From an uncultured Alphaproteobacteria bacterium (GTDB lineage Bacteria; Pseudomonadota; Alphaproteobacteria; CAAHEQ01; UBA3637): a DNA stretch of 64,000 nucleotides. Below are positions 1 to 63,020 of the stretch, piece by piece (position 1 is the stretch's first letter; each line of letters starts with the position of its first letter). The stretch lies in NCBI GenBank assembly GCA_944391565.1, contig CALXUB010000028.1:30738-94737 (forward strand). The letters run 5' to 3'. Made by a program: the position numbers and the translations under genes. The notes under the pieces were generated by a model. It searched no databases. It was given only the letters and a program-made list of their open reading frames with translations, and was not told the DNA's origin.

Positions 1-360
1 CATCATTGTGTGCATACATATCATCGGTACTCATAAAAGAAATATATTTCCCGTGTGCTTTTAGAATGCCTTTGTTATAGGGATCGAAAAAACCGATATC
101 CGGTTCGGAATAACATTTTACCCAGCCTTTATCAACGTATTCCTGAATAAGGTCTAACGTGCCGTCAGTCGAGGCACCGTCAATAATAATATGTTCGATA
201 TTTGTATATGTTTGAGCATGAATGGAATTCATGCTTTCTTTAAAAAGTTCTGCGCGTCCGGCTTTTATAATGTTCAGAGTCGCCGTAACGACGGTCACTA
301 GGGGGGGGGGGGGCAAAGTTTGCTGTTATTCAGTCCAGATGTCTCTTTGACCGTTTTCAT
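1..360 (-). CDS. GT2 glycosyltransferase, 5' part (continues beyond window start). ATG at 360-358 is followed by a 13-G (coding poly-C) tract; currently frame-shifted OFF, terminating after 20 codons.
   Basis: Minus-strand translation gives MKTVKETSGLNNSKLCPPPP* with 13 C; with 14 or 11 C it continues LVTVVTATLNIIKAGRAELFKESMNSIHAQTYTNIEHIIIDGASTDGT..., matching the N-termini of the paralogous GT2 genes at 684-1736 and 8886-9719. RBS AAGGAG lies 6 nt upstream of the ATG. Confidence 0.7.
301..313. repeat. Homopolymeric G13 tract (slipped-strand phase-variation switch) inside the 5' coding region of the GT2 gene
   Basis: 13 consecutive G read directly at 301-313, preceded by CACTA. Confidence 0.9.
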
Positions 361-691
361 TTTCTACTCCTTTGTCATACATCGCCAGCATTAGCGTTTC
401 TTCTAAATGTTTAAAGGTGTGTTTTACGCCTTTTTCTATGGCGAAGAAACTGTTTTCCGTAACGATTAAGTTTTCTGTTTTTCCATCTTTTTCCAAAGTA
501 ATATCAATTTTTCCTTGGACAATGTAAAAAGCTTCGCGATTTTCACGATGCAAATGCCCACCGCGAAAAATATTTTTTTTGGTATAAGACAGATTGACCT
601 GGGTCCAACCTTCATGGCATAACTGCCGAAGCCAGCCTCTATCATCATCAAATTCGAAATCAGGTTTTAAAAAAGTAATCATATCAGACAT
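326..691 (-). CDS. Cupin-fold sugar 3,4-ketoisomerase (FdtA/WxcM-like)
   Basis: 121 aa with cupin motifs (GGHLHRE...); sits in a glycosylation cluster; its 3' end overlaps the start of the phase-variable GT2. Confidence 0.55.
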   Translation of the reverse strand: MSDMITFLKPDFEFDDDRGWLRQLCHEGWTQVNLSYTKKNIFRGGHLHRENREAFYIVQGKIDITLEKDGKTENLIVTENSFFAIEKGVKHTFKHLEETLMLAMYDKGVENENGQRDIWTE

Positions 692-1736
692 TTTCTTTCC
701 TTTTTATTTTCAATAGAGGTAATCCCAAGACATATACGCGCGTTGTCTTTCCTTTTATTTTTGTTCTCCACAAAGGGAAACGCCATAAATAGGCGGTAGA
801 TTGAGCTCTGTAAGTTTTCTTATCCAAGCTTTCATTTCCGGATGAGATCGTCGGATAGACAGGGTCGAAATGGAATGTTTTATGAGAAAAATACGCTTGC
901 AACCAAATATCTTTTTTCAATTTTAATCCCAAGTTTGTAAAAGCGGCTCCTTCTAATTTAAACCAAAAGTCGTTGTTGTATAAGACACCGCATTCTGCAG
1001 GTGTCATTCCCCATGTTTTTCCAAAAAGCTCATAGAATGCTTTTGTATGACTTTTACGAATGGATGCTGTCATTTCTCGCGAGCTGCCTTTTCCGTTTTC
1101 TTTAAAAATAGCTGTGACGGAAGGAACTTTTACAGATTTATGATTGCCGGCAATCAATCTCATCATTAACTCATTATCTGCATTCGTCAACTGATCATGA
1201 AATAACCCAAGCTTACGCAAAACATCCGTTTTCGCAAAAATAGTTTGATGGCATGGGAAATAGCCAAAGGGAATATAGTCTAACACTCCTTTCCATAAAA
1301 TAATGTCTCCGGTTTTTGGGTTGTGTCGCCAAGTATCGGCATATGACCAGTCCGCATTTTCTTTTTCAAGCAAATCGACGTTTTCTGCAATAACACTTTT
1401 ATGCGCGAACATATCATCCGTTCCCAAAAATACAATGTACTTACCGGTTGCCTTTTGTATTCCTTTGTTATAAGCATCGTAAATACCTTTATCTTTTTCA
1501 GAATAAATCTTTGTCCGTTTGTCCATTGATAAGTTCTTTAGTAAAGTCAGTGTCCCGTCATTGGATGCGCCATCGATGATGATATGTTCAATATTCGGAT
1601 AGGTTTGAATTTGAACAGAGTTCAAACATTCTTTCAACGATTCTTCCCTTTGAGCTGCAAGCAAATTGAACGTTGCCGTGACAACAGTCACTTTGGGAAG
1701 TTTGGTTTCATGTTTAAAACGTTCAATTTTTACCAT
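684..1736 (-). CDS. Family 2 glycosyltransferase
   Basis: N-terminal VTVVTATFN...IIIDGASNDGT...DDMF pattern typical of GT2 (DxD). Confidence 0.75.
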   Translation of the reverse strand: MVKIERFKHETKLPKVTVVTATFNLLAAQREESLKECLNSVQIQTYPNIEHIIIDGASNDGTLTLLKNLSMDKRTKIYSEKDKGIYDAYNKGIQKATGKYIVFLGTDDMFAHKSVIAENVDLLEKENADWSYADTWRHNPKTGDIILWKGVLDYIPFGYFPCHQTIFAKTDVLRKLGLFHDQLTNADNELMMRLIAGNHKSVKVPSVTAIFKENGKGSSREMTASIRKSHTKAFYELFGKTWGMTPAECGVLYNNDFWFKLEGAAFTNLGLKLKKDIWLQAYFSHKTFHFDPVYPTISSGNESLDKKTYRAQSTAYLWRFPLWRTKIKGKTTRVYVLGLPLLKIKRKENV

Positions 1737-1746
1737 TAGAAAACCA

Positions 1747-2811
1747 TTATTTCTTTTTTATTGACACAAGTGGAAAGCCAAACATCTTTAAATGCATTTT
1801 TGACGGGGTTTCTTTCTCTGTCTTTAACAAAGGGATACCCAGTAAATAAAAACGTGTATTGTTTAATTTACGTTTAAAACCAAAAAGCGGAACGAAGTTA
1901 AAAAAGTAGAATGTCGTTTTTGATTTACGTGTACGAATTCGCAACAAAGGGATAATACCGGCGATACGAATATTCACACGGCTTTCTGACCTTTCTCGAA
2001 TAACTTTTTCCGTTGCTGAACAAGTTGGAAAAAGGAACTTGAGTGCGTAAGTGGTCAGCGCTTTTTTCTGAGGATAGTAAACAAAAAGATCTTTACATTT
2101 TGATGCCAATAAATCACACATGCCGCTGCGCAATGCATGCACTTGCCCGCAATGAAAACCCAAAGCAATCAGCTCTTCAATCGTTAAATCAATATTCGGA
2201 ACATCGGGTATCAAAAAAGATGGATTCAAAACATTTTGAATAACAACGAAGTTTTGCTTTGTCAGCATTTCAGCCGTTCTTTTCCAAAAGCTTACAGAAA
2301 GAGGAGCCAAAGAACTGGCCTCTGGCAATAAAAGAGCAATTTGTTTTAACGGAAAAGAGGTTATTGCTTTTAACTTCGTCTTAAGTTCTTTGGAAACAGT
2401 CGGCATTTGAATCGGTTCGAGCAATGGAGAGTCCTGCGGAATATCCAAAAACGTGGTATAATAAGTTCTGAAATCAAGCTCTCCATTTAACAAAGCAAAA
2501 TGCATATCCTTAAAGGCTGAATGATAGTAGGGATGGGCAACGTATATTTTACCTTTTTCCGGTCCTTTATCTGTCGGAAGCGTTAATGCATCACAGTCAA
2601 CATTTTTCAAAGATATGACTGTATAGTCATGAATTCCATACATCTTCATAATCAGTTCATGACTGGCTTTTATCAAAAAATGAATTTTTCCGCCGTGCTT
2701 TTTCTCCCAAGTCTTTTTAAAACCAGATAAAATCATGGTATCTCCCAAGCCGAAAGGAGATAAAAAATAATACCTGTCTCTTTTTAGTTTAAGAGCGTTG
2801 ATTTCCTGCAT
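1747..2811 (-). CDS. Glycosyltransferase-like protein with a repeated basic/amphipathic C-terminal motif (likely start at MQEINALK)
   Basis: Long ORF in the glycosylation cluster; C-terminus carries about four copies of xFYxxGxPLLKxKxK, a motif shared with the C-terminus of the adjacent GT2. Confidence 0.4.
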   Translation of the reverse strand: MQEINALKLKRDRYYFLSPFGLGDTMILSGFKKTWEKKHGGKIHFLIKASHELIMKMYGIHDYTVISLKNVDCDALTLPTDKGPEKGKIYVAHPYYHSAFKDMHFALLNGELDFRTYYTTFLDIPQDSPLLEPIQMPTVSKELKTKLKAITSFPLKQIALLLPEASSLAPLSVSFWKRTAEMLTKQNFVVIQNVLNPSFLIPDVPNIDLTIEELIALGFHCGQVHALRSGMCDLLASKCKDLFVYYPQKKALTTYALKFLFPTCSATEKVIRERSESRVNIRIAGIIPLLRIRTRKSKTTFYFFNFVPLFGFKRKLNNTRFYLLGIPLLKTEKETPSKMHLKMFGFPLVSIKKK

Positions 2812-2822
2812 TGTATCAGTCC

Positions 2823-4046
2823 TTAAAGCTTTTTCACAAACTGGATGGCTTCGAACATGGAAACATCCGCATTTTGATATTGCCACTGACCCCAACGACC
2901 GACACCGAACAAATGTTTGTCACGATAGTAATCCAAAACATTCTTAATTGCTCCGGCATGGCCGATAACTGGAATGGGGTAGGCTGCTTGTGTTTCAAAG
3001 TGAGCCAGAGCTTTTGTGCCCATAATCGGGTCGTCTCCATTGAAACGTTTTATATTTGTTTCCAGATAGATACCATTTTTCTTACTGTCAAATGCAAAGT
3101 TAGAAATATAAAATTCACGATGATACCGGCGATTGATATCCGGAACATAACGCCAATGCCAGTTAACGTTATACTCTTTTTCATACAAAGAAACGACAAT
3201 TCTGTTATATTGCATTTTAGCAAAATCATCTTTTAAAGCAGAAGGTTCGCCTAATGCTTTGAACAAATCAGGCCAGGGCGCCGTATTGATGACATTTTTT
3301 GCTTGATAGGTGTCATTAATGAGCCAGGAACCATCAGCCTGATATTGCATTTTCGTCACGGGTGTATTCAACACGACATTTTGAGCTTCATCTTTGTAAA
3401 TAGCGTCAAAAATCGCTTGGAAACCTCCTTGTTTCGGATAATAGAAACCAATGTGTGCCGGGAACTTTGTCACATCTTGTTTACGATCCAAACTATACTT
3501 TAAAACTTCTTCCACATTGACACGCGGGATTTTATACAGCCAATCCACATCCATTTCAGCTGGTGTGACACCCCATAATTTCGTATTGTAGGGTATCATA
3601 TAAGTATCACAGATTTTATCGCCTAATTTCCAGCGAATCCATTCTTCGTAATTTTTGGGTTCCGGTTTGCCCAAAGATTCCCCATTGCGAATAACAGAAA
3701 TTAAATAAGCGATTTGTTCATCCTGTGGCAGCTGCCATAAGTTGGATTCAATCGGATAATCAATTGTTGTTTCACCGATCAGCTGTTTTGAAACACGAGG
3801 AATAAAGTTAAAATGACTTTCGGGAATATGGCTGAAAATATAGTCATACACTTCTTGATGCTTTGTACCAAAAAAATGTCCGCCGCCAATATCCAACACA
3901 TGTCCGTCAATGATCTTTGTCGTGCAAAGCCCGCCGGCTTCTTTGGCTGCCTCTAAAACAACAACATTGTGAATTCCTTTTTCTTTCAGCTTTTTACATA
4001 ATGTGACACCAGTCACGCCGGCGCCGATAATGAGATAGTCATACAT
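2823..4046 (-). CDS. glf: UDP-galactopyranose mutase
   Basis: N-terminal FAD-binding MYDYLIIGAGVTG motif; length and conserved blocks match Glf. Confidence 0.7.
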   Translation of the reverse strand: MYDYLIIGAGVTGVTLCKKLKEKGIHNVVVLEAAKEAGGLCTTKIIDGHVLDIGGGHFFGTKHQEVYDYIFSHIPESHFNFIPRVSKQLIGETTIDYPIESNLWQLPQDEQIAYLISVIRNGESLGKPEPKNYEEWIRWKLGDKICDTYMIPYNTKLWGVTPAEMDVDWLYKIPRVNVEEVLKYSLDRKQDVTKFPAHIGFYYPKQGGFQAIFDAIYKDEAQNVVLNTPVTKMQYQADGSWLINDTYQAKNVINTAPWPDLFKALGEPSALKDDFAKMQYNRIVVSLYEKEYNVNWHWRYVPDINRRYHREFYISNFAFDSKKNGIYLETNIKRFNGDDPIMGTKALAHFETQAAYPIPVIGHAGAIKNVLDYYRDKHLFGVGRWGQWQYQNADVSMFEAIQFVKKL

Positions 4047-4058
4047 TCCCGTTTTCCT

Positions 4059-5117
4059 TTATAAAGATTGATACCATCGATAAAAGGCCGCAATTCCTTC
4101 TTCCAAAGAAATTTTCGGTTCCCAACCCAAAGCTTTGATCCGCGTTGCATCCATCATTTTTCTCGGAGTACCGTTCGGTTTTGTGTTGTCATACTCTATT
4201 TTACCTTGATAGCCGGTCAGACGTTTTGTTAATTCAAATAAATCTTTTAATTGAATGTCGTCTCCTTTGGTAATATTGACAAACTCACCGATTTCATCAT
4301 AATCCTTGTTATTCATCAGATAAATACAGGCGTCGGCCAAATCATCCGAACACATCATTTCACGATATACAGATCCATCTCCCCACATAACAACTTTGTC
4401 AGGATAGACACCGACTTTTTCCAACGCTTTTAGTAAGCTTTCCCGATCATCAAAAAGAAGCTGTTCATCTAAACCCCATCCTAACTTATATCTTTTTAAA
4501 TCAGTCTCGATGGCGTTCCAGTCATCATTCATCAATAATTTTGCCAAGTGAAAACGGCGCATGATAACCGGCAGTAGATGTCCGGTCTCCATATTAAAGT
4601 TATCACCTTGGCCGTATTGATTGGTGGGCATTACGGAGATAAAATTAGTTCCGTATTGTTTATTATAATACTGACAAAGCTTGATCGCTGAGATTTTTGC
4701 CAAGGCATAGGCTTCGTTGGTTTTTTCCAACTCACCGGTTAACAAAGCCTCTTCCTTCATTGGTTGAGGAGCCATACGGGGGTAGATGCAAGAAGAGCCT
4801 AAATTCAACAGTTTTTTGACACCGGTTTTATATGCGCTGTCAATCACGTTGCAGGCAATCATCAAATTTTGATAAATAAACTCGGCGGGATAGGTTGAAT
4901 TCGCCATAATGCCGCCAACTTTTGCGGCAGCCAGGATGACATAGTCCGGTTTTTCCTGTTCAAAAAAAGCCAGTGTTTGTGCTTGATTTGTCAGGTCTAA
5001 TTCAGCAAATGTCCGTGTAATGATATGATTAAATCCGGCGTTCTTTAAACCGCGATAAATCGCAGAACCGACTAATCCTGTATGTCCGGCAAGATAGATT
5101 TTTGCATCTTTTTCCAT
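4059..5117 (-). CDS. fcl: GDP-L-fucose synthase (GDP-4-keto-6-deoxymannose epimerase/reductase)
   Basis: SDR-fold with N-terminal GHTGLVGSA Rossmann motif; located downstream of gmd. Confidence 0.7.
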   Translation of the reverse strand: MEKDAKIYLAGHTGLVGSAIYRGLKNAGFNHIITRTFAELDLTNQAQTLAFFEQEKPDYVILAAAKVGGIMANSTYPAEFIYQNLMIACNVIDSAYKTGVKKLLNLGSSCIYPRMAPQPMKEEALLTGELEKTNEAYALAKISAIKLCQYYNKQYGTNFISVMPTNQYGQGDNFNMETGHLLPVIMRRFHLAKLLMNDDWNAIETDLKRYKLGWGLDEQLLFDDRESLLKALEKVGVYPDKVVMWGDGSVYREMMCSDDLADACIYLMNNKDYDEIGEFVNITKGDDIQLKDLFELTKRLTGYQGKIEYDNTKPNGTPRKMMDATRIKALGWEPKISLEEGIAAFYRWYQSL

Positions 5118-5123
5118 TTTTAT

Positions 5124-6218
5124 TTAAACCTCCTGTGGAATCAGAACCTTATATCCGTTTCCGGTCAAGAATTTTTCACGCATGGCTTCGCTCATGTCTG
5201 ATTCGACCATATCCTTTACCAACTCTTGTAAAGAATGTTCTGCTTTCCATCCCAGTTTCTGTTGAGCTTTACTCGGATCACCTAAAAGCAAGTCCACTTC
5301 AGCTGGACGGAAATACTTGGGATCGACTTCAATTAAGACTTTTCCTGTTTCAGCATCAATTCCTTTTTCATTGACGCCTTCACCTTCCCATTTTAACTGA
5401 TAACCTAACTCTTTAAAGACTAAATTACAAAAATCACGAATAGTCGTTGTTTGTCCGGTTGCCAAAACAAAATCTTCCGGTTTTTCTTGCTGCAGCATCA
5501 ACCACATGCCTTTTACATAATCTTTTGCATGTCCCCAATCCCGTTTGGAAGAAAGATTCCCTAAATACAGTTTGTCCTGCATACCCAAACGAATGCGAAC
5601 GGCGGCACGTGTGATTTTACGTGTGACAAATGTTTCACCGCGGCGCGGGCTTTCGTGGTTGAACAGAATGCCGTTGCAGGCATAAATGCCATAACTTTCA
5701 CGATAATTGACCGTAATCCAATAAGCATATAGCTTTGCGCAACCATAAGGGGACCGCGGATAAAAAGGTGTTGTTTCTTTTTGAGGCGTTTCTTGGACAA
5801 GGCCGAAAAGTTCAGATGTCGAAGCCTGATAGAATTTTGTTTTCTTTTCCAATCCCAGGATACGAATCGCCTCTAAGAAGCGTAAAGTGCCGATACCATC
5901 GGCATTGGCGGTATATTCAGGCACGTCAAAAGAAACCTTAACATGAGATTGTGCCGCTAAATTGTAAATCTCATCCGGTTGGATTTCCTGCAACAAGCGA
6001 ATAATGTTGCTGGTATCCGTCAAGTCAGCATAGTGAAGAAAGAAATGACGGTTTTCATTATGTGTGTCCTGATATAAATGATCAATACGGGCAGAGTTAA
6101 AAGAAGAAGCGCGTCTTTTCATGCCATGAACTTCATATCCTTTTTCTAACAATAATTCAGCTAAGTAAGAACCATCTTGCCCAGTGACGCCGGTAATTAA
6201 AGCTATTTTTTTAGTCAT
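5124..6218 (-). CDS. gmd: GDP-mannose 4,6-dehydratase (ORF track extends to 6254; likely start [10 protein letters not shown] at 6218)
   Basis: [19 protein letters not shown]... and conserved Gmd blocks. Confidence 0.8.
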
Positions 6219-6226
6219 TGTTTGTC

Positions 6227-6658
6227 CTATTTTTTCCAGTTGTTTAAAATCCACGAAGAGGAGTTCATTTTATTTTCTCCTCCGACACCGAAACGCATTT
6301 CAACTTGACACGTTTGGCACATCTCAATTTCCGGGATGTTTTCTTTTGTTCGATCTCCGCCATTGGCGAAAACCAACCGATCATTCGGATACTTTTGGCG
6401 CACGCGGCGAATGCCGTCATTTGCTGAATTGTCTGAATCATCGAAACAGATAACATCAACGACGCCTTTAATATTTTCACAAATGGTTTGTCGGGTTTTT
6501 TGACTCATAAAATTTTTCCCTTTTTTACGACATAGCCACTCATCCGAATTAAGTAATAAAATAACACCGTCCGATTCTTTTTGGGAAGCCTTGATCATCT
6601 CGATATGGCCTTCATGAATGGGGTCAAAGCCGCCACTGACAATATAATAAGTTTTCAT
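6227..6658 (-). CDS. Cytidylyltransferase-like nucleotidyltransferase (glycerol-3-P cytidylyltransferase / RfaE domain II-like)
   Basis: [10 protein letters not shown] (HxGH) nucleotidyltransferase motif near the N-terminus. Confidence 0.55.
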
Positions 6659-6794: not shown

Positions 6795-7652
6795 TTATTT
6801 TTCAGACAGATGCCAACCTTTCTTCTTCGAATAAAAAATAATCTTATCTGTGTGAGTATATTTGTACTTTTCTTTTTTTCGCCAAAGATGTCGTTGGCGC
6901 CAGAAGTAAAAACGTTTTCTTAGAGAGTTTGTTTCGCTTCCGCTGAGTATCTCCATTTCTTTTCGATATTGATTTATTCTTTCGGATAACTGACCCGGTC
7001 TTGTTCGTGCTGCCGCCAGGAAGGTGTCAGCAATATAAAGAGATGTTTTATGAGCAAAAAACCACCACAAATAAAAATCTCCGGCCAATTTAAAAGAGGC
7101 AAATTGTTTATAATCAAAGTCATTCATTAACGAACGTCGCCAAAATGTTGTTTCTTGTTGAATAAAGGGAAGCTGTCGGCCGTAATATCCATTTAAAATC
7201 CCTTTGTTATCATATTCAAATGGTAATCGGTTGAAAACAATGTTTCCTTTTTCGTCGGTGGTACATTGTCGTCCGCAGAGCCATAAAACTTGTGGATATT
7301 TTTTAAAAATAGAAGCGACGAATTCAAAAGCATGTGGAAAATAAAAGTCATCTGCGTTCAGATATGCGATGATTTCTCCGGTAGCCATTTGAAAACCTTT
7401 TGTAATTCCTTCATACATGCCGTTATCTTTTTCGGATATGACTTTCATTTCAATGGAAGGATTTTCGCCATAACAGCCATGTTTTAGACGTTCTTCATGG
7501 GCCGAAATAATACGAAGGCTGTTATCTTCGGAGGCAGCGTCAATAATAATATACTCCAGTTCGAAGGAACCTTTTTGAGATAAAACACTTTCCAATGTTT
7601 CAGCAATATATTTCTCACAGTTAAAACAAGTTGTAATAATTGAAATTTTCAT
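6795..7652 (-). CDS. Family 2 glycosyltransferase
   Basis: MKISIITTCFN...IIIDAASEDNS...DDFY GT2 pattern. Confidence 0.7.
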   Translation of the reverse strand: MKISIITTCFNCEKYIAETLESVLSQKGSFELEYIIIDAASEDNSLRIISAHEERLKHGCYGENPSIEMKVISEKDNGMYEGITKGFQMATGEIIAYLNADDFYFPHAFEFVASIFKKYPQVLWLCGRQCTTDEKGNIVFNRLPFEYDNKGILNGYYGRQLPFIQQETTFWRRSLMNDFDYKQFASFKLAGDFYLWWFFAHKTSLYIADTFLAAARTRPGQLSERINQYRKEMEILSGSETNSLRKRFYFWRQRHLWRKKEKYKYTHTDKIIFYSKKKGWHLSEK

Positions 7653-7686
7653 CTTTATATAGAATCTTTTATTTTTTTAACCACTT

Positions 7687-8886
7687 TTAGTTTAATAATT
7701 TTTGAAGTAAAGTAAAGCTGTTTTTAGAAAAATTTTCGCGAGAGTAGCGTTTTGTAAAATAATGTTGCAAGAAACGAATATCGTTTTCAACTTCCTTCAT
7801 GTCTTTTTGAAAAAATATTTTCAGAGTTGCTTCGATTTCATCAATGGAACAATTTTCCAAATATATTCCTTTCCCTTTTGGCAAATCAACGCCGGCATCG
7901 TGGCTGATAATCGGATAAAGGCCGGCATTTAAAGCTGTAATGGCAGCCGTAGAGGTTGCTTCCGAAGCGGAAGCGTTGACAAAAGCAACGCATCGGGAAA
8001 GTATCTGTCGGAACAGATCGGAATCAGATGCGACAAGACCATAGCAATGAATATTTGGTGTATTGTGTATTTCCTGATAATATGCCTTTATAAAGTCTTT
8101 TTCAGAATATATTTTTCCTGCTATGTGCAGGTGCCATTCCGGGTGTTTGACAAAAACTTCCAAAAGACGATCTAATCCTTTTAAAATGACACCGGCACCA
8201 CCGAGCCAAAGAATCCCTCGGTCTTCAGATGGTGGAATAAAATGTTCTTTTTTGGCTGTGTGTGTTATATCAGATCCTGTCAGATCCAGTAAATGGATTT
8301 TAGGTTGCAGTGATTTCGGATATGTTTCGAGAGTATGTTTGTTTCCGACTAAAACTGCGCCATCGGCAGCTTTCAGAGAGTCCAAAAGAGCCTGCGGATT
8401 TTTGATAAGACGTTTGGGATGACAATGAACATTTCGACGTTTGTTAAGGGCTTCACAACGTTCGGTTTCTCTTTGATTTTGATAAAAAGGGTCGCTTGAC
8501 GTCAAATACTGAATTTTAATACAGGTCGATGGTAAATTCCAAAAATGAAAATGCGAACCCGAATCGATGACGGCATAATAGTTTTTTTGCGGTTTAAAAA
8601 AAGGATTTTGATAAAAAACGACATCAACATTATAACCCAGCTTCAGCAATGATTGGACGAGTTCTTTGTTTTCCCATCGATTGGAATGATATTGAAAAAG
8701 TTTTTGTTTTCGAGGTTCTGAAGCCCAATCGAACAAATAAGAGACAAGCACCCATGGCGCTTCCGTCCGACTGATAAAAGAAATGACGCTTTTGTTCAAA
8801 AGATAGGTCAAATAGAGTTTTGCTTTTCGACGTGTTTTTTTGTGAGGAATAAGGCAGGTGAAAGCTTTTATCAGAGCTTTTTTCAT
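7687..8886 (-). CDS. Glycosyltransferase (GT1/GT4-like) or polysaccharide polymerase-associated protein
   Basis: 399 aa in the glycosylation cluster; family assignment is tentative. Confidence 0.35.
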   Translation of the reverse strand: MKKALIKAFTCLIPHKKTRRKAKLYLTYLLNKSVISFISRTEAPWVLVSYLFDWASEPRKQKLFQYHSNRWENKELVQSLLKLGYNVDVVFYQNPFFKPQKNYYAVIDSGSHFHFWNLPSTCIKIQYLTSSDPFYQNQRETERCEALNKRRNVHCHPKRLIKNPQALLDSLKAADGAVLVGNKHTLETYPKSLQPKIHLLDLTGSDITHTAKKEHFIPPSEDRGILWLGGAGVILKGLDRLLEVFVKHPEWHLHIAGKIYSEKDFIKAYYQEIHNTPNIHCYGLVASDSDLFRQILSRCVAFVNASASEATSTAAITALNAGLYPIISHDAGVDLPKGKGIYLENCSIDEIEATLKIFFQKDMKEVENDIRFLQHYFTKRYSRENFSKNSFTLLQKLLN

Positions 8887-9719
8887 CAGATTTTCCCGAA
8901 AAGTTTTCTTTTAAGTGAGTTTAAACCAATCCACAGGCAAGACCTTTTAATTTCAGGTGAGGGACATTGATAAAGTGCTTTAAGCAACTTAAATGGAAAA
9001 ATATAAGTCTGCGCCATTTTTTCAAAATCAGCCGTTGGACAAAATTCGGCATAATTTTTGCGATAAAGATAAATTTTCTCCGAAGGATGCTGCTTTTCGT
9101 TTTGATCTGTCGCCCCGCCTCTGCGGAAAGTTGCCAATGTTTTATTTACCATTGTACCGCGATAATTGTGTAAATATAATCGTAAAATAAAATCATAATC
9201 TCCCATTAGTCTGAAATTCGTATCAAATCCGCCGATTTTTTGAAAAACGTCTTTAATCACGAACATTCCGGGGTGCGGAAAAGGCATATTTCTGAGCAGA
9301 CGGCCTAATTTTATTTTACCGACTTTTTGCATCTTTTTCTTTTCATCTAAATTGATGATGGGCGCATAAGAAAAATCATAGCCTTTGGATAAAGCTTTAA
9401 CAGAAAGTTCTATGGCTTTCGGGTTATGAAAGAAATCGTCCGAGTTTAAGAAAGTGACAATGCTGCCACAGCACAATTTCACTCCTTTGTTCATGGCGTC
9501 ATAGATGCCTTTATCTGGTTCTGAAACATATTTGATCCATCCTTTTTGGGCGTATTTTTTTAAAAGGTCGACTGTTCCGTCCGTTGAGCCGCCGTCGATA
9601 ATGATATGCTCAATATCCGAATATGTTTGGTGATGCACAGATTCCAGCGTTTGAAGAAAGGTTTTGTTTCGTTTCGCTTGAAATAAATTAAAAACCACAG
9701 TAATCACTGAAACTTTCAT
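8886..9719 (-). CDS. Family 2 glycosyltransferase
   Basis: MKVSVITVVFN...IIIDGGSTDGT...SDDFF. Confidence 0.75.
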   Translation of the reverse strand: MKVSVITVVFNLFQAKRNKTFLQTLESVHHQTYSDIEHIIIDGGSTDGTVDLLKKYAQKGWIKYVSEPDKGIYDAMNKGVKLCCGSIVTFLNSDDFFHNPKAIELSVKALSKGYDFSYAPIINLDEKKKMQKVGKIKLGRLLRNMPFPHPGMFVIKDVFQKIGGFDTNFRLMGDYDFILRLYLHNYRGTMVNKTLATFRRGGATDQNEKQHPSEKIYLYRKNYAEFCPTADFEKMAQTYIFPFKLLKALYQCPSPEIKRSCLWIGLNSLKRKLFGKI

Positions 9720-36761: not shown

Positions 36762-38018
36762 ATGTTCGGATTGCTGGATTGTAATAATTTTTATGTCAGT
36801 TGCGAGCGTGTTTTTAATCCTGCTTTATGTCAAAAGCCTGTTTTGGTGCTTAGTAATAATGACGGTTGTGTGATTGCCCGTTCGAATGAAGCAAAAGCGC
36901 TGGGTATTCAAATGGGAACCCCTGCTTATCAGTTGAAGAGGGTGATCGAAAGAGAAAAAATACATGTTTTTTCTTCTAATTATGCATTATACGCTGATAT
37001 GTCCGGTCGTGTGATGCAGCTTTTGGAAAGTTGTGTGCCGGCAATGGAAGTTTATTCAATAGACGAAGCTTTCTTGGATTTGACAGGCATAACACAACTT
37101 ACTTCCTTCGGTAGAAAAATAATTCAGATGGTGATGCGCGGAACAGGCATTCCTGTTTCGTTGGGGATAGCTTCTACGAAAACTTTGGCAAAAGTTGCCA
37201 ATAAATTTGCAAAGAAATATCAATCTTATCAGCATGTGTGTTTAATAGATACACAAGAAAAACGTGAAAAAGCTCTGCGATTAACGAATATCAGCGATGT
37301 GTGGGGAATTGGACATCGTCTGACGGAAAAACTGCATCAGGAAGGTGTGAAAACAGCCTATGATTTTACCTGTCTGCCGCGTGCGTGGGTCAGACAAAAT
37401 CTGCATCTGGGCGGATTATGTGTTTGGCAAGAGCTGCAAGGAGAAAAATGTCTTGACTTAGAACAAGAAGAAATGGAGAAAAAACAAATTTGCACTTCCC
37501 GTAGTTTTGGCGAAATGGTGACAGAATTGTCAGTGTTGAAAGAAGCCATTGCAACACATGCAGCCAGGTGTGCGGCTAAATTAAGAAAACAAAACGGCTG
37601 TGTTGTTTCGTTGGTCGTTTTTATCTCTACAAACGTTCATCGGACGGATTTACCTCAATACTGGAAAAGCCAACTTGTTTCCTTATTGGTTCCGTCAGAT
37701 GATACACGTGAAATTGTGACAGCGGCCTTGCATGGGTTGGAACAGATTTACAAACAAGGATATAATTATAAAAAAGCAGGTGTGATTTTGACGGAAATTG
37801 TCGCTAAGGTGCCTTTTCAGCAGGATTTATTTGATGAAAAGAATCATGAAAAGGCTTTTCGGTTAATGCAAGCCATAGATCAAATAAACGGTTTTTATCA
37901 TGAATGTAAAATTCGTTTGGCTGTCGAAGGAACCGGTCGTCGGTGGCGATTAAAACAGGAAAAACGTTCATTATGTTATACAACAAACTGGCGGGAGTTA
38001 ATTCGCATTCGAACATAA
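36762..38018 (+). CDS. umuC: DNA polymerase V subunit UmuC (Y-family)
   Basis: N-terminal LDCNNFYVSCE Y-family motif. Confidence 0.8.
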   Translation: MFGLLDCNNFYVSCERVFNPALCQKPVLVLSNNDGCVIARSNEAKALGIQMGTPAYQLKRVIEREKIHVFSSNYALYADMSGRVMQLLESCVPAMEVYSIDEAFLDLTGITQLTSFGRKIIQMVMRGTGIPVSLGIASTKTLAKVANKFAKKYQSYQHVCLIDTQEKREKALRLTNISDVWGIGHRLTEKLHQEGVKTAYDFTCLPRAWVRQNLHLGGLCVWQELQGEKCLDLEQEEMEKKQICTSRSFGEMVTELSVLKEAIATHAARCAAKLRKQNGCVVSLVVFISTNVHRTDLPQYWKSQLVSLLVPSDDTREIVTAALHGLEQIYKQGYNYKKAGVILTEIVAKVPFQQDLFDEKNHEKAFRLMQAIDQINGFYHECKIRLAVEGTGRRWRLKQEKRSLCYTTNWRELIRIRT

Positions 38019-51812: not shown

Positions 51813-54236
51813 TTAATTAACGGCAACCGTTGTTTGTGGACCGGGTGCCTCACAAGGCGGTAAGTCGTTTGGCAAAGGGGTCAAAGGTTGGATTAAGGCC
51901 TTTTCCAAAACTTCGCGCACATAAGTGACAGGAATAATTTGAAGACCTTCTTTAACGTTGGCCGGTATTTCCTCCAAATCTTTGACATTTTCCGAGGGAA
52001 TCAGAACGGTTTTTAAACCGGCTCGCAGAGCTGCCAACAATTTTTCCTTTAACCCACCGATCGGCAGAACACGACCACGCAACGTAATTTCTCCCGTCAT
52101 GGCAATGTCTTTCCGAACCGGAATACCGGTCAGAGCGGAAACCAAAGACGTACACATGGTAATACCGGCTGACGGTCCGTCTTTCGGTGTGGCTCCTTCG
52201 GGAACATGAACATGAAGATCATTCTTTTCAAATAAAGAGGAGGGAATACCAAAAGCAACATGGTGCGAACGAATGTAAGAACGAGCTGCTTCCACAGATT
52301 CTTTCATTACATCTCCCAGCGATCCCGTTAAGATGATATTGCCTTTTCCGGGCATCGTGACTGCTTCGATGGATAGAATTTCCCCCCCCACTTCTGTCCA
52401 AGCTAAACCGGTTGTCACACCGACTTGGTCTTCCTGTTCCGCAACCCCGAAACTATAACGTGGCACACCGGCATATTTTGACAAGTTTTCTTTTGTCACT
52501 TCCACCGTTTTTTGTTCACCCATCATGATTTCTTTGACGGCTTTTCGCGTCAGATTGGCAATTTCACGCTCTAAGTTGCGCACACCTGCCTCACGCGTAT
52601 ATAAACGGATTAAATCGCGGATAGCATCTTCCGTCACTTTAAATTCTTTTTCGGTCAATCCGGCGGCTTTCATTTGTTTGGCAATCAAATGACGCTTTGC
52701 TATTTCGACTTTTTCGTCTTCTGTATAGCCGGATAATTGAATAATTTCCATTCGATCTAACAAAGGACGCGGCATTTTCAGCGTGTTAGCCGTTGTGACA
52801 AACATCACGTCGGATAAGTTATAATCAATCTCCAAATAATGGTCGTTGAAGGTTGCATTTTGTTCAGGATCCAGCACTTCCAGCAAAGCAGAAGAAGGAT
52901 CTCCGCGCCAGTCAGCTCCTAATTTATCAATTTCATCCAACAGGAACAATGTGTTTAGCGTTTTGGCTTTTTTCATGCCCTGAATAATTTTGCCGGGCAT
53001 GGAACCGATATAGGTACGTCTGTGTCCGCGGATTTCTGCTTCATCCCGCATGCCGCCTAATGAGGCGCGGACGAAATGTCGTCCTGTTGCTTTGGCAATA
53101 GACTGTCCCAAAGATGTCTTGCCGACACCCGGCGGACCGACCAAACATAGAATCGGACCCTTAATTCCGTTCGACTTCTTTTGAACAGCTAAATATTCAA
53201 TGATGCGTTCTTTGACTTTTTCCAAACCGTAATGATCTTTATCCAGGATTTCCTGAGCTTTTTTTAAATCAATTTGGTTTCGTCCCGGATGCTTCCACGG
53301 CAAAGATAAAATCCAATCTAAATAATTGCGAATGACACCGGCTTCGGCCGACATAGGACCCATCATGCGCAGTTTCCTGAGCTCTCCAAGGGCTTTTTCT
53401 TTTGCTTCTTTGGGCAAATGTGCTTTTTCAATTCTTTTTTGAAACTCAAGCAATTCACTGCCTTCTTCTTCATCTCCCAGCTCTTTTTGAATGGCTTTCA
53501 TCTGCTCATTCAGATAGTATTCTTTTTGACTTTTTTCCATTTGATGTTTCACGCGCTTGCGGATTTTCTTTTCAACTTGCAAGACGCTGATTTCCTTTTC
53601 CATGAAAGTAAACAATTCTTCCATGCGTTTCAAAAGGGATTTTGTTTCCAAAAGCTTTTGTTTGTCAGCAATTTTAAGCGTTAAATGAGATGAAACGGCA
53701 TCTGCCAACTTGGCCGGATCTTGTATTTGAGAAACGGCGACCCATGCTTCCGGCGGAATGCGTTTATTCAGGCTGACATATCGTTCAAATTGTCCCATAA
53801 TGGAACGGGTGAGGGCATCCAATTCTTCGGATGGTTCATCTTCATCTTTAACTTGTTCGGCACGAACTTCCATAAAAGGATCTTCTTGAATGAAGGCTTT
53901 AATTTCAGCTCGTTGTGTTCCTTCCACCAAGACTTTGACGGTTCCGTCCGGCAGACGAAGCAGCTGCAAAACGGTTGCCAGTGTTCCCAGTGTATTCATA
54001 TCTTCGGCTTTGGGATCATCCACGGTCGGATCTTTTTGCGTGACAAGCAAAATTTGCTTATTTTCGGACATAATGCTATCCAAAGCACGGACTGACTTTT
54101 CGCGGCCGACAAACAAAGGCACAACCATGTGCGGAAAGACAACAATATCTCGTAACGGCAACAGCGGATAAACATCCTTCGGTCCGTTGTCGGCAGGAAT
54201 AATATTTTCAAAGTTTTTTAAATCTTCTGACGGCAT
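51813..54236 (-). CDS. lon: ATP-dependent Lon protease
   Basis: 807 aa; Walker [10 protein letters not shown]; catalytic Ser context DGPSAG. Confidence 0.95.
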
Positions 54237-58066: not shown

Positions 58067-58137
58067 ACAATTATATTGCAATATTATCTAAACTCTGTCA
58101 ATATATTTTTTATTCTAATATGAAAAAAGAGGTCACT

Positions 58138-61100
58138 ATGAGCTATACGTTAGGATTGGACTTAGGAAATACATCTATCGGATGGGTACTTTTAAAAACA
58201 AACGATGCGGAAATAACGGGAATTGAAGCCATGGGCGTCCGTATTTTCCCGGATGGTCGTGAAGCTCAGTCTAAAGAGCCTTTAGCTGTCGCACGCAGGA
58301 TGGCCCGTTCGATGCGCCGTTCTTTGGACAGACGTCTGCTGCGTCAGGAAAAACTGATGCGCTTTTTGATTGAGAACGGCCTTTACCCTGCAAATGAAGC
58401 AGATAGTAAGAAATTGGTTCAATTAAATCCCTATGCCTGTCGTGATAAAGCTTCCCGTGAAGAAGTTAATCCTTTTGAAGTGGGGCGAGCATTATACCAT
58501 ATTTGTCTTCGTCGCGGTTTTCTCAGCAACAGAAAAACAGACAAAAAAGACAAAGAAAGCGGCAGCATGAAAACAGCCATTCATGTATTGGAAGAAAAAA
58601 TAGCTCAATCAGGAGCGCAAACGCTGGGGCAATATCTGTATTTGCTTCAGCTTCAGGATGATCATGCGCAGCTGCGTGTCAGTGCGCAGACGGCGGGAAC
58701 AAAAAACGTATACAATTTCTATCCCTCTCGAGCCATGTATGAGCGGGAGGTTGATCAAATTTTAATGCATCAATCATATTTGTCGGCGGCCCAGAAAAAT
58801 GAAATAAAAGAAATTATTTTCTATCAACGGCCCTTGAAAAAGCCTCAAGTTGGCTTTTGCACTTTAGAAGAAAAAGAACGTCGGGCGCCCAAATCCAGTA
58901 TTTTGTTTCAATATTTCAGGTTGTTGCAAAAACTGAATGATTTAGAATATGTTTTCTTGGATACAGGGGAATGTTTAACAGATGAAAACCGTCAAGTTAT
59001 TAAAGAAATGCTGTTGAAATCAAAAGAAGTTTCTTTTGAAACGATTCGTAAAAAATTAGGCGTTTCGTATCGTTTTTCGCATGAAGACGAAAAAACATCC
59101 AAACTGACGGGACATGAAATCAATGCGAAAATGAGTTCTAAAAAGGCTTTCGGATCTGCTTGGTTTGAACTGTCCGGACGGGAACAAGAACACCTTGTCA
59201 TGCTTTTGTCCAATCTGGAGAAAGAAGATGTTCTTGAAAAATATTTAAAACAGACTTATCCGGATTTAAGCGATGAGCAAGTCGAATATCTGCTAGGACT
59301 TTCTTTTCCAGAAGGATATGGCCATTTAAGTCGACGAGCAATGTTAAAAATAATTCCGTTTATGGAAAAAGGCTTATCTTATTATGATGCTTGTGAAGCG
59401 GCCGGTTATCACGAAACGGAACAGCCGCACGGAGAGCTGTTGCCTTATTATGGGGAGATTTTGTATAAAAAATTATTGGGCGGAAGTTTTAATCCATCCG
59501 ATCAAAATACACCGGAGCTTTATTATGGAAAAATTAATAATCCGACAGTTCATATCGGTCTGAACCAACTTCGTTTGCTTGTCAATGAACTAATAGCCCA
59601 ATATGGGAAGCCGACACAAATTGTGGTAGAACTGGCGCGTGAATTAAAGATGTCTCAAAAAGACTTGAATGAACTGAATCGAAGACAAACGGCCGATAGA
59701 AAGGAAAACGAGAAAATCAATCTTTTTCTGAAAGAACAAGGATTGCCTGAAAGCTATGAAAATCGAATGCGGTATAAATTGTGGACGGATTTGGCTGAAA
59801 ATCCCTTGGAGCGCTGTTGTCCTTTCTGCGGTCGCACAATCGGTGAAGGGGATATTTTCTCGCCGGCTTTTGAAACAGAACATTTACTGCCATTTTCTCG
59901 TTCATTTAATGACGGACGGAATAATAAGGTTTTAGCTTGTAAGGAATGCAATAACTTTAAGAAAAACCAAACACCTTGGGAGGCATTTCATACTCATGTG
60001 GGAGATAAATATGATTGGGAAAATATCTTGGCCCGCGTTTCAAAAATGAATAACAGAAAAGCATGGCATTTTACGAAAGAAGCTGCCGAAAGTTTGGATG
60101 AAAACACGGTCTTAAATCGTTTTTTGAATGATACAAAGTATTTGTCCAAAATGGCAAAAGCTTATTTGGAATATATTTGTCCGGTTCGAACAATTCCGGG
60201 ACAATTAACCTCTAAAATGCGCAAGATTTGGCAATTTAATGACTTGATCGGCGAAACGGATGAAAAAGATCGCACGGAGCATCGACATCATGCGATTGAT
60301 GCCTTAACGGTGGCATGCACGACACGCAGTACACTACAGGCTTTTTCAACACATTCAAAAGAAAGCTATGAACGACAGCATAAAATTTTGGCCGGCAGTT
60401 TAGTTCCTTTTAAGGCTTTTAATCGGGCAGAAATGAAACAACTTTTGGAAAATATGGTGATTTCCTATAAACCTAATCATAAAGATGCTCAAAAAGCTGT
60501 TTCCCAAGGCAAAACGGCAGGGGCTTTGCATGATGAAACAAACTACGGAAAAGTGATGCATTTAAACGATGACGGTTCTGTTGAAAGCCGCTATGTGGTT
60601 CGAAAGCCGCTAATCAGTTTAATTGAAGATAAAAATATTGAAGAAATCGGTGATCGAAAAATCCGTCATGAACTGCAGACATTGCTTGCCGGCAAAAGTA
60701 AAGAGGAACGTAAAAAATTATTGGAGGCCTACAGCGAGGAAAAGAATATCAGAACGGTTCGCGTCCATATCATTAAAAAAGATGATGCTATGATCGGCAT
60801 TTGTCGGAAGGGACAGGAAAAACCCTATCGTTATGTCGCCAGCGGTAATAATTATTGTATGGATATTTATTGTCCGAATCGAGGGAAAAATAAAGGGGTT
60901 TGGTGTGGAGAAGTCATCTCTAATTATGAGGCTCATCAAAAAGGTTTCCAGCCTCAGTGGCGGCAAAAAGAGCCGGAGGCAAAACTGATTATGCGTCTGT
61001 TTATCGACGATATGGTCGCATATGAGGAAAACGGACAAACGGAAATCCGACGCGTGAAAAAAATGGATAAAAGTGTTAAAGTTTATCTGCGTTCTCATTT

Positions 61101-61227
61101 GATAGCAGCAGAAGAAGCAGATAAATTATCTTGGGCAGCTTCTCCGCGACAGCTTCAGTTAAAAAATGCCCGGAAAATAAAAGTTGATGTTTTGGGACGG
61201 GTTTTTGACCCGAAAAGTTCCAAATGA
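58138..61227 (+). CDS. cas9: Cas9, type II-C, about 1029 aa (ORF track begins at 58120; the ATG at 58138 has an AAGAGG RBS)
   Basis: RuvC-I LGLDLGNTSIGW; Arg-rich bridge helix RRMARSMRRSLDRRLLRQ; HNH ETEHLLPFSRSFNDGRNNKVLACKECNNFKKNQTP; RuvC-III HHAIDAL. Confidence 0.92.
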   Translation: MSYTLGLDLGNTSIGWVLLKTNDAEITGIEAMGVRIFPDGREAQSKEPLAVARRMARSMRRSLDRRLLRQEKLMRFLIENGLYPANEADSKKLVQLNPYACRDKASREEVNPFEVGRALYHICLRRGFLSNRKTDKKDKESGSMKTAIHVLEEKIAQSGAQTLGQYLYLLQLQDDHAQLRVSAQTAGTKNVYNFYPSRAMYEREVDQILMHQSYLSAAQKNEIKEIIFYQRPLKKPQVGFCTLEEKERRAPKSSILFQYFRLLQKLNDLEYVFLDTGECLTDENRQVIKEMLLKSKEVSFETIRKKLGVSYRFSHEDEKTSKLTGHEINAKMSSKKAFGSAWFELSGREQEHLVMLLSNLEKEDVLEKYLKQTYPDLSDEQVEYLLGLSFPEGYGHLSRRAMLKIIPFMEKGLSYYDACEAAGYHETEQPHGELLPYYGEILYKKLLGGSFNPSDQNTPELYYGKINNPTVHIGLNQLRLLVNELIAQYGKPTQIVVELARELKMSQKDLNELNRRQTADRKENEKINLFLKEQGLPESYENRMRYKLWTDLAENPLERCCPFCGRTIGEGDIFSPAFETEHLLPFSRSFNDGRNNKVLACKECNNFKKNQTPWEAFHTHVGDKYDWENILARVSKMNNRKAWHFTKEAAESLDENTVLNRFLNDTKYLSKMAKAYLEYICPVRTIPGQLTSKMRKIWQFNDLIGETDEKDRTEHRHHAIDALTVACTTRSTLQAFSTHSKESYERQHKILAGSLVPFKAFNRAEMKQLLENMVISYKPNHKDAQKAVSQGKTAGALHDETNYGKVMHLNDDGSVESRYVVRKPLISLIEDKNIEEIGDRKIRHELQTLLAGKSKEERKKLLEAYSEEKNIRTVRVHIIKKDDAMIGICRKGQEKPYRYVASGNNYCMDIYCPNRGKNKGVWCGEVISNYEAHQKGFQPQWRQKEPEAKLIMRLFIDDMVAYEENGQTEIRRVKKMDKSVKVYLRSHLIAAEEADKLSWAASPRQLQLKNARKIKVDVLGRVFDPKSSK

Positions 61228-62150
61228 CCGGACAGATTTTGGAAATAGCAACAGATAATAAGCATTTGTCCGCCAAAGACGGATTTATCGTCATTTCGGA
61301 AGGACAGGTCGAGTTGGGCCGTATTCCGATTGACGCCGTTGAAGCCGTAGTTGTTTCTGCGCATGGCATCACTTACAGTCATTCTTTTTTGGTGCGCTTG
61401 TCAGAGAATAACATTCCGTTTGTGGCTTGCAATCAAAAGCACTTTCCCGTTTCTTATCTGCTTCCTTTAGAGGGACATTATAAGCAAGGCTCTGTGATGG
61501 ATGCTCAGCTTCAAGCAAATCTACCGCTTAATAAAAGGTTGTGGCGAGACTTAGTGAAAGCAAAAATTGCTATGCAAATCAGCGTTTTAACACATTATCA
61601 GAAGCCTGTGCAACGTTTAGAGTATTTATTGAAATCCGTCAAATCGGATGATAGTGAAAATGCAGAAGGTCAGGCAGCCCGTTTTTACTTTCAAGCATTG
61701 TTCGGAGACAATTTTATACGCGATCGTGAGGCGGATGGTATCAATGCCATGCTCAATTACGGATATACGGTTCTGAGGGCCTTTATCGCGCGTTATTCGA
61801 CGGCTGCCGGTTTGCATCCGACAATGGGGATTCATCATCGGAACGCTTTGAACGGATTTCGCTTAGCCGACGATTTGATGGAACCTTTTCGGCCGATTGT
61901 TGACTTTGCTGTTTATGAGATGATAACAAAGGGAGAAACGGCACTGACTTCAACCGTGAAGCAAAGCTTGGTTAATGTATTTTCAGGAAATATACCCGCT
62001 TTTTTGGGACAAACTCAAATAACAATCTGTATGCAGAATCTGTGTATTTCTTTGGCTAAAGTATATTTAAAAGAACGGGAGGAACTTGATTTGCCATATT
62101 CACCGCAACCATGGGATTGGGAGGCTTTAAATGCCTTCATCGCCGTATAA
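61224..62150 (+). CDS. cas1: Cas1
   Basis: 308 aa; overlaps the cas9 stop (ATGA); position. Confidence 0.85.
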   Translation: MTGQILEIATDNKHLSAKDGFIVISEGQVELGRIPIDAVEAVVVSAHGITYSHSFLVRLSENNIPFVACNQKHFPVSYLLPLEGHYKQGSVMDAQLQANLPLNKRLWRDLVKAKIAMQISVLTHYQKPVQRLEYLLKSVKSDDSENAEGQAARFYFQALFGDNFIRDREADGINAMLNYGYTVLRAFIARYSTAAGLHPTMGIHHRNALNGFRLADDLMEPFRPIVDFAVYEMITKGETALTSTVKQSLVNVFSGNIPAFLGQTQITICMQNLCISLAKVYLKEREELDLPYSPQPWDWEALNAFIAV

Positions 62151-62460
62151 TCAAATGTGGATGATGGTTATGTTTGATTTGCCGGTCGGAACGGCAAAAG
62201 AGCGTAAAAAAGCCACGGCTTTTCGAAAGGGACTCTTGGATCTTGGCTTCGAAATGTCACAATTTTCAGTTTATGTACGTTTTTGCGGCGACAGGCAGAA
62301 AACAGAACCTTATGTTCGAAAAATTAAGACGTTAATTCCGGAAAATGGGAGCGTCACGTTATTATTTTTTACGGATCGACAATTCTCCGATATTATTAAC
62401 TTTTCGAATCGAAAACGTAAAAAATTAAAGGAAAATCCGGCTCAGTTATCTCTGTTCTAG
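62131..62460 (+). CDS. cas2: Cas2
   Basis: 109 aa; overlaps cas1; MWMMVMFDLP start typical of Cas2. Confidence 0.85.
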   Translation: MPSSPYNQMWMMVMFDLPVGTAKERKKATAFRKGLLDLGFEMSQFSVYVRFCGDRQKTEPYVRKIKTLIPENGSVTLLFFTDRQFSDIINFSNRKRKKLKENPAQLSLF

Positions 62461-62468
62461 AGAGCTTT

Positions 62469-62497
62469 TGGGAGGATATTTTCTTATATCCTCCTTT
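62469..62497 (+). terminator. Rho-independent terminator after cas2 (GGGAGGATAT-TTTCTT-ATATCCTCC-TTTT)
   Basis: Read directly. Confidence 0.65.
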
Positions 62498-62521
62498 TAA
62501 AACAACGACTTAACTCAGTGA

Positions 62522-63020
62522 GATTATAGCAGATTAAAGAGTATGGTCAAGCCGTAACAATTCGTTGTCTACATAATTTTTTACTTCTATTATAGCAGAT
62601 TAAAGAGTATGGTCAAGCCGTAACACTATAATTTCAAAGTATTGGGATTTTGCTATTATAGCAGATTAAAGAGTATGGTCAAGCCGTAACTTATCAATGT
62701 GTTTATTTACATCAACATTAATTATAGCAGATTAAAGAGTATGGTCAAGCCGTAACTTGTTTATCCCTGTTGTTATATAGCTTTTTATTATAGCAGATTA
62801 AAGAGTATGGTCAAGCCGTAACATCACCTAAAATAATATTGAAAGCTTTTTTATTATAGCAGATTAAAGAGTATGGTCAAGCCGTAACTTTTCAAAACCG
62901 TCAAATTCAAGCCGAGAAATTATAGCAGATTAAAGAGTATGGTCAAGCCGCAACGCAACACGCGAGATCATTGACATCGTACAGATTATAGCAGATGAAG
63001 GAATATCTTGTTGACGAAAG
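62522..63020 (-). CRISPR. CRISPR array: 36-bp repeat (+ strand ATTATAGCAGATTAAAGAGTATGGTCAAGCCGTAAC), 7 spacers of 30-31 bp, repeat 7 variant (GCCGCAAC), degenerate 8th repeat at 62985. The crRNA-sense repeat is the reverse complement and ends in an extended -10 TGCTATAAT.
   Basis: Repeat starts 62522, 62589, 62655, 62721, 62787, 62853, 62919, 62985 counted directly. Confidence 0.95.

Follow-up and report, generated by a model that had tools for sequence, protein, structure and literature searches.

A length-variable homopolymeric tract as a putative on/off switch of a surface-glycan glycosyltransferase gene in an uncultured alphaproteobacterium

In the first few hundred bases of a 64,000-nucleotide stretch of metagenomic DNA (hereafter the window), a run of 13 identical bases lies in the 5' part of a glycosyltransferase gene and raises the question of whether the length of this run decides if the enzyme is made. 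The run occupies positions 301-313, as G13 on the plus strand and thus as C13 on the minus strand, which is the coding strand and in which it would be translated as a poly-proline stretch. In a homopolymer scan of the 64-kb window, the composition of which is 40% G+C, no other G/C run exceeds 8 nt, and an i.i.d. model with the composition of the window predicts approximately 1e-4 runs of 13 or more where one is seen. With 13 nt the tract is longer than the about 8-9 nt from which a G/C homopolymer counts as a hypermutable repeat. The second-longest G/C run of the window is C8 on the plus strand at 52382-52389; it lies in the gene of the Lon protease (51813-54236), whose coding strand, the minus strand, reads G8 there.

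The signals for translation are closely interleaved with the tract. On the minus strand a Shine-Dalgarno sequence, AAGGAG (367-372), is followed after a 6-nt spacer by an ATG (358-360, hereafter ATG360), the start of the full-length 351-aa glycosyltransferase, which is located inside the 3' end of the upstream cupin gene but in another frame. The cupin ORF (326-691) ends with a TAA at 328-326, and its overlap with the ATG360 reading frame amounts to 35 nt, stop included. Counted from ATG360, the tract begins within codon 16 (TGC). In the C13 allele present in the window the ATG360 frame is a 20-codon leader ORF, MKTVKETSGLNNSKLCPPPP, ended by a TAG at 300-298 directly past the tract. Addition of one C to the tract, or removal of two, changes the ATG360 frame to ...CPPPPLVTVVTATLN..., joined to the glycosyltransferase, and the next frame past the tract (VTVVTATLNIIKAGR...) is open to the window edge. 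Located in the 5' part of the ORF, the tract thus leaves ATG360 in frame at C14, while C13 and C15 lead to an early stop. Two further candidate start codons are found on the same strand. A TTG (316-314), directly before the tract and 9 nt past the cupin stop, would give a protein beginning MPPPPLVTVV..., and a GTG (298-296) is in frame with the body of the enzyme whatever the tract length. In the C13 allele the glycosyltransferase frame is also the cupin frame, with both TTG and GTG in frame; for the TTG this holds only at C13 (or 10, 16). The leader TAG (300-298) and the GTG share one base (TAGTG). A sequence-only reading of this DNA had described the tract, the AAGGAG, ATG360 and the TAG, and its coordinates and geometry proved correct when the window was re-read, although the frame shared with the cupin at C13, the TTG and GTG in that frame and the TAG-GTG overlap had escaped it; its proposal that one extra C, or two fewer, restores the glycosyltransferase frame is borne out by the CPPPPLVTVVTATLN reading.

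The tract-bearing gene encodes a glycosyltransferase of the GT2 family. The window holds the N-terminal part of its body (1-298, minus strand; PF00535), only the first 99 codons past the tract, and the rest lies beyond the window start; the full gene comprises 993 nt from the GTG. The fragment 2-298 matches the Pfam family PF00535 (Glycos_transf_2) with an E-value of 9.5e-14 and 52.1 bits, against a cut-off of 23.3, and the full-length protein, taken from a second assembly of the same species (L001), matches solved GT2 structures (9omh etc.) with an E-value of 2e-13. The best NCBIfam match is WcaE-like and falls below the cut-off of that family. The sequence includes IIIDGASTDGT and STDD (within FMSTDDMY), which are candidates for the nucleotide-sugar-binding and DxD-type motifs of GT2 enzymes.

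The surrounding genes form a minus-strand glycan operon of the GDP-6-deoxyhexose/O-antigen type, and the tract-bearing GT2 gene is its second-to-last member. Preceding it on the minus strand are the cupin gene, encoding 121 aa with weak WbuC/FdtA-like matches; a GT2 paralogue of 350 aa (684-1736), 46% identical to the tract-bearing GT2 and without a tract; a protein of unknown family, 354/382 aa (1747-2895); a flavoprotein (2823-4046) weakly similar to UDP-galactopyranose mutase; a GDP-fucose-synthase-like (Fcl-like) epimerase/reductase (4059-5117); and a GDP-mannose 4,6-dehydratase (Gmd, 5124-6254). Further glycosyltransferases are encoded at 6795-9719, and an RmlD-like reductase, beyond the window start, begins 2 nt past the GT2 stop. 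The operon is tightly packed, with genes overlapping (by 8 nt in the case of the paralogue and the cupin). This setting fits the sequence-only reading, which had placed the tract in a multi-GT2 polysaccharide cluster.

Several other features of the cluster were recorded. The two GT2 paralogues share a basic C-terminal motif, (V/L)(F/L)GLP(L/V)LK(I/L)K(R/K) (window 684-790; L001:7300-7387), approximately three tandem copies of which are found at the C-terminus of the unknown-family protein (window 1747-2000). The N-terminal part of the latter protein (YFLSPFGLGDTMILSGF...) is also the N-terminus of two GT2 homologues of 589-596 aa, P0064 and P0085, an arrangement that suggests a fusion; a shared membrane-anchoring or partner module may be represented here. 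In two assemblies (L006:3507-4560 and L008:4955-6008, corresponding to window 684-1736) the GT2 paralogue is split into ORFs of 259 and 107 aa. A second repeat switch was ruled out as the cause of this split, which is an ordinary 1-bp insertion (GGGGAATG to GGGGAAATG) with no repeat. Genes of the glycan cluster are therefore also lost through plain frameshifts, as exemplified by the paralogue in the L006/L008 lineage.

Assemblies from many independent samples were gathered by exact-protein look-ups with the cupin and the GT2 variants as queries, and the exact proteins were found only in metagenome contigs and in one NCBI MAG, GCA_964311715.1. These assemblies are 99.3-99.9% identical, and the tract is the sole indel in most 12-kb pairwise comparisons. 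Seventeen independent assemblies of one species, this window counted, span the tract, with lengths of 13, 14, 15 and 16 that represent the assembly consensus of short-read metagenomes, in which G/C runs of 13-14 are error-prone. C14, the commonest state (9/17: L001, L003, L005, L092, L095, L096, L097, L105, and L106), sets ATG360 in frame for a protein of 351 aa, as does GGG+C14 in L004, here for 352 aa. Five assemblies carry C13 (the window, L002, L006, L098, and L110), with the stop at the TAG past the tract. One assembly (L102) has C15, for which the stop occurs about 20 codons further on, and one (L100) has C16 and is out of frame; the L100 contig begins 17 nt before the tract and its flank is corrupted at the contig end. 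Within the limits of consensus calls from short-read metagenomes, near-identical strains thus carry both in-frame and out-of-frame lengths. Six more contigs or scaffolds break inside or directly past the tract (L007-L010 and L109, together with L111, which has an N-gap); such breaks, found in at least six assemblies, hint at within-sample mixtures but are ambiguous.

The distribution of the tract states among strains is informative as well. In a neighbour-joining tree built from 2.6 kb on the flanks of the tract, which included three C13 strains, these strains fall in three separate clades, each beside C14 strains, and the C15 strain is found in another. L106 (C14) and L110 (C13), which have near-adjacent accession numbers, differ over 760 nt solely at the tract. 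Since the tract states are scattered on the tree and almost no other change accompanies them, tract length has changed repeatedly. Two assemblies depart from the common arrangement in other ways. At L004:6360-6400, AAACTTTG is replaced by ACACTTTGGGG directly before C14, adding one codon and keeping the frame (352 aa, ...STLWGPPPPL...); the resulting G4C14 junction may be genuine or may have arisen in assembly. P0149 (L103:1362-1473) is a 330-aa form of the GT2 with another N-terminus (MAAAKLLSIITICKNE...), lacking both the tract and the upstream cupin, and its junction with the usual sequence falls precisely on the conserved IIDGASTDGT motif. P0149 most likely represents a chimera created in scaffolding or else a recombinant allele no longer subject to the switch, and for this reason it was not counted as a tract state.

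The most probable reading of the locus, and one held with good if incomplete confidence, is that of a simple-sequence-repeat contingency locus in which tract length gates the GT2. Slipped-strand mispairing at replication would add or remove a base in the 13-14 nt G/C run, and the resulting length would decide whether ribosomes starting at ATG360 read into the enzyme or stop early. C14 (or 11, 17) would give the 351-aa enzyme and an ON state, C13 would end translation at the TAG directly past the tract, and C15 would end it about 20 codons later. The C13 allele of the window would accordingly be OFF or strongly reduced at the level of protein. Switching would be expected to add or remove one sugar of a surface polysaccharide in a fraction of the cells, probably reversibly within a clone, and the untranslated GT2 message might lower expression of the downstream RmlD-like reductase. 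The slipped-strand on/off interpretation had been advanced from the sequence of a single allele, and it is supported by the lengths of 13, 14, 15 and 16 with 14 the commonest, by the scatter of states, by an ORF that stays intact, and by a Shine-Dalgarno sequence found only at ATG360.

The ranking of the candidate start codons bears directly on this reading. ATG360 has a duplex energy with the anti-Shine-Dalgarno sequence of -8.2 kcal/mol, as compared with -3.0 kcal/mol for the TTG at 316-314 and +2.2 kcal/mol for the GTG at 298-296, the upstream side of which is occupied by the tract itself. Reference energies are a median of -5.6 kcal/mol for gene starts of the window and a mean of -1.3 kcal/mol for random sites. 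ATG360 is the sole candidate start with a real ribosome-binding site, and a true start at the GTG or the TTG is disfavoured by these values. The homologues have a common N-terminus, M-x(1-20)-(K/P)-P-L-V-T-V-V-T. The last CCC of the tract together with CTA-GTG encodes the conserved Pro-Leu-Val of this N-terminus, and therefore the tract lies inside the coding sequence; the same conservation argues against GTG298 as the native start.

An alternative is that, whatever the phase of the tract, the enzyme is produced from GTG298 or, at C13, from TTG316, via coupling to translation of the cupin or the leader, with the tract tuning the level or the N-terminus of the product. This is considered unlikely, though several features of the locus are compatible with it. 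C13 places the TTG, four CCC codons, CTA and the GTG in the frame of the cupin, the TAG and GTG overlap, and the operon is tightly packed with overlapping genes, the cupin and the paralogue among them. In some homologues the N-terminus is very short (MSVVTAVYN, MRASIITATYN), beginning 1-3 residues ahead of the first beta-strand, and by this comparison a GTG-initiated protein of 330 aa could be active. Gene callers in fact annotate this 330-aa protein from GTG298 in the C13, C15 and C16 assemblies, and the 351-aa protein from ATG360 in the C14 assemblies. On the other side, neither the TTG nor the GTG has a Shine-Dalgarno sequence to set against that of the ATG, a start at the GTG drops the P-L conserved before V-T-V-V, and the commonest length among the assemblies is the one that puts ATG360 in frame. 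At C15 the stop of the leader ORF is reached only some 60 nt beyond the GTG, and coupling would therefore fail there.

The contingency-locus reading can itself accommodate some translation in the out-of-frame states. The window allele had been called currently OFF, a description that stands insofar as C13 is out of frame from ATG360; it may be too absolute in that OFF may be leaky, because the TTG and GTG are in frame at C13 and the leader TAG overlaps the GTG. Residual expression at C13 is possible through re-initiation at the GTG, through the in-frame TTG, or through transcriptional slippage. A more speculative extension, to which only a small probability is assigned, is a three-state device in which C14 gives high expression, C13 gives low expression, either of an N-terminally shortened enzyme via TAGTG re-initiation or from the TTG (MPPPPL...), and C15 is off and possibly polar on the RmlD-like reductase. 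Were this so, one homopolymer would set high, low or zero glycan modification; to our knowledge no repeat-set high/low/zero variation of a surface glycan has been described in alphaproteobacteria. Programmed ribosomal frameshifting or stop read-through, leading to a cupin-GT2 fusion at C13, was also considered, but no supporting signal was found.

Variation in the tract could also be a technical artefact, the true tract being a fixed C14 that encodes a poly-proline linker, with the lengths of 13, 15 and 16 arising from PCR stutter, Illumina poly-G, or low-coverage consensus errors. Several of the contigs do have low coverage (cov 3.5-8 in the record names), many break exactly at the tract, as is typical of unreliable reads, and the commonest minority call is C13, as predicted for contraction-biased stutter; the single C16 call comes from L100 with its corrupted flank. 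Nonetheless, 7/17 independent consensus calls, from various assemblers and projects, differ from 14, which is high for consensus error, and 12 kb of the same contigs show no other indel. In every case measured, the mutation rate of G/C runs of 13-14 nt in contingency loci has been of the order of 1e-4 to 1e-2 per generation, and at such rates real variation is expected regardless. An artefact is accordingly regarded as a rather improbable explanation of the length differences.

The coding sequence downstream of the tract has been maintained. The GT2 body (993 nt) is intact in 13/13 spanning alleles with a complete gene, in any tract state, and the variable codons among these 13 alleles comprise 7 synonymous and 1 nonsynonymous, a ratio drawn from few sites. 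The GT2 ORF is under purifying selection, and it is kept open despite the frequency of OFF alleles (13 alleles; small number of sites). It is therefore very improbable that the gene is a pseudogene in the window strain and its frameshift a one-way loss, as the out-of-frame window allele and the 1-bp insertion in the neighbouring paralogue of L006/L008, a sign that cluster genes can be lost, might suggest, given that the C13, C15 and C16 alleles are all free of secondary lesions, that synonymous codons predominate, and that the out-of-frame alleles are dispersed over the tree with in-frame alleles as their sisters.

The tract appears to be restricted to this species. No run of P or G is present in the first 60 residues of any of the 119 other GT2 homologues listed, and a comparable tract at the DNA level is absent from all of the homologue loci examined (6/6). 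In the loci of P0026, P0078 and P0003 all G/C runs are shorter than 7 and all A/T runs shorter than 9. Since the homologues are without a comparable tract, it looks like a species-specific acquisition, and the comparison of homologous sequences provides no evidence for a conserved design. Searched with the full-length GT2, the GTDB representative genomes yielded no relative, and the tract with its exact flank had 0 matches in the JGI metagenome contigs scanned. An apparent 5' truncation of the DegT gene in L114 was noted in the course of these comparisons and rejected, as it is merely an N-gap.

Switches of comparable design are well known in mucosal pathogens, examples being lgtA, lgtC, lgtD and lgtG of Neisseria and cgtA and wlaN of Campylobacter jejuni, which act on LOS or capsule. 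In these genes, as here, the 5' part of the ORF of a surface-glycan glycosyltransferase contains a G/C homopolymer (about 8-17 nt), translation is cut short by the frameshift that a one-base change causes, and tract length varies between strains. Intragenic poly-G/C switching of surface-glycan glycosyltransferases is treated in three published accounts (PMC5953494, PMC8437040, PMC5084427). The likeness drawn here between the WcaE-like GT2 and the lgt and cgt genes concerns tract design. Unlike the Neisseria and Campylobacter genes, the gene described here has its start embedded in the upstream gene and an OFF stop that overlaps an in-frame GTG, and its switch is putative. The hosts differ too, Neisseria and Campylobacter being beta- and epsilonproteobacterial pathogens and the host here being an alphaproteobacterium that is apparently a gut commensal.

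Poly-C tracts also turn surface-glycan epitopes on and off in Helicobacter pylori, in which futA, futB and futC underlie Lewis-antigen phase variation. As here, the coding strand carries the poly-C in the 5' region of the glycosyltransferase gene; the fut enzymes are fucosyltransferases, a different family from GT2. The cluster described here would also make a GDP-6-deoxyhexose, on the evidence of Gmd and the Fcl-like enzyme, which adds to the likeness with the fut setting. Lewis-type phase variation in H. pylori is touched on in a published account (PMC2211851). For Pasteurella multocida, a gammaproteobacterial pathogen and in this respect unlike the present host, another account describes glycosyltransferase genes of the LPS locus that are phase-variable between outbreak isolates (PMC9176279). 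A precedent within the Alphaproteobacteria is badE of Bartonella krasnovii, an experimentally shown contingency locus with A9 and G9 mononucleotide repeats and ON/OFF states among natural isolates (PMC11466379). The badE repeats resemble the tract described here in being frameshifting mononucleotide runs in an alphaproteobacterial host; they differ in their shorter length (9 nt), in belonging to a trimeric autotransporter adhesin, and in that Bartonella is a blood-borne pathogen.

The affiliation of the host was judged from two housekeeping proteins, Lon and ClpX. Across the 80 matches kept from GTDB representatives, the Lon protein of the window shows 64-71% identity, and almost all of these carry alphaproteobacterial or unspecific Proteobacteria titles, with 2/80 titled as non-alphaproteobacterial. 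The two highest-ranking Lon matches come from a rumen MAG and from one titled uncultured Rhodospirillaceae bacterium. The adjacent ClpX reaches up to 70% identity and is present in 67 of the 80 Lon-match loci. On these sequence comparisons the host is classed as an alphaproteobacterium not close to any representative returned, and the sample labels suggest that the samples are from the human gut. It had been remarked that such a switch would be unusual in an alphaproteobacterium. Lon and ClpX place the host in that class; the switch would not be unprecedented there, as Bartonella badE demonstrates (PMC11466379).

Elsewhere in the window a type II CRISPR-Cas locus extends over 58120-63020, consisting of a Cas9 of 1035 aa (58120-61227; TIGR01865, E=2e-186), a further ORF after Cas9 (61224-62150), and a CRISPR array of at least seven units with a 66-nt period (62523-63020). 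The exact sequence of this Cas9 is absent from a collection of 15 billion proteins. A UmuC-like subunit of error-prone polymerase V is encoded at 36762-38018 (NF002955, E=1e-125, just under the cut-off); this gene adjoins tRNA genes and stretches low in GC (31-34% at 30-32 kb and at 40-42 kb), which may be mobile or island DNA.

The present analysis extends slipped-strand glycan variation, in its putative form, to an uncultured alphaproteobacterium and documents a metagenome-wide polymorphism of tract length. There are practical consequences, as the gene is annotated inconsistently (with 351 or with 330 aa) and contigs are interrupted at the tract; in metagenomic time series the locus might be used as a natural marker to follow population dynamics within hosts. 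Among gut commensals, most of the switches known work by promoter inversion. If the switch is real, an alphaproteobacterium known only from metagenomes, apparently of the human gut, uses the stochastic glycan switching classically tied to mucosal pathogens such as Neisseria, Campylobacter, Helicobacter and Haemophilus, which would point to selection by host antibody, or by phages that use the glycan as a receptor.
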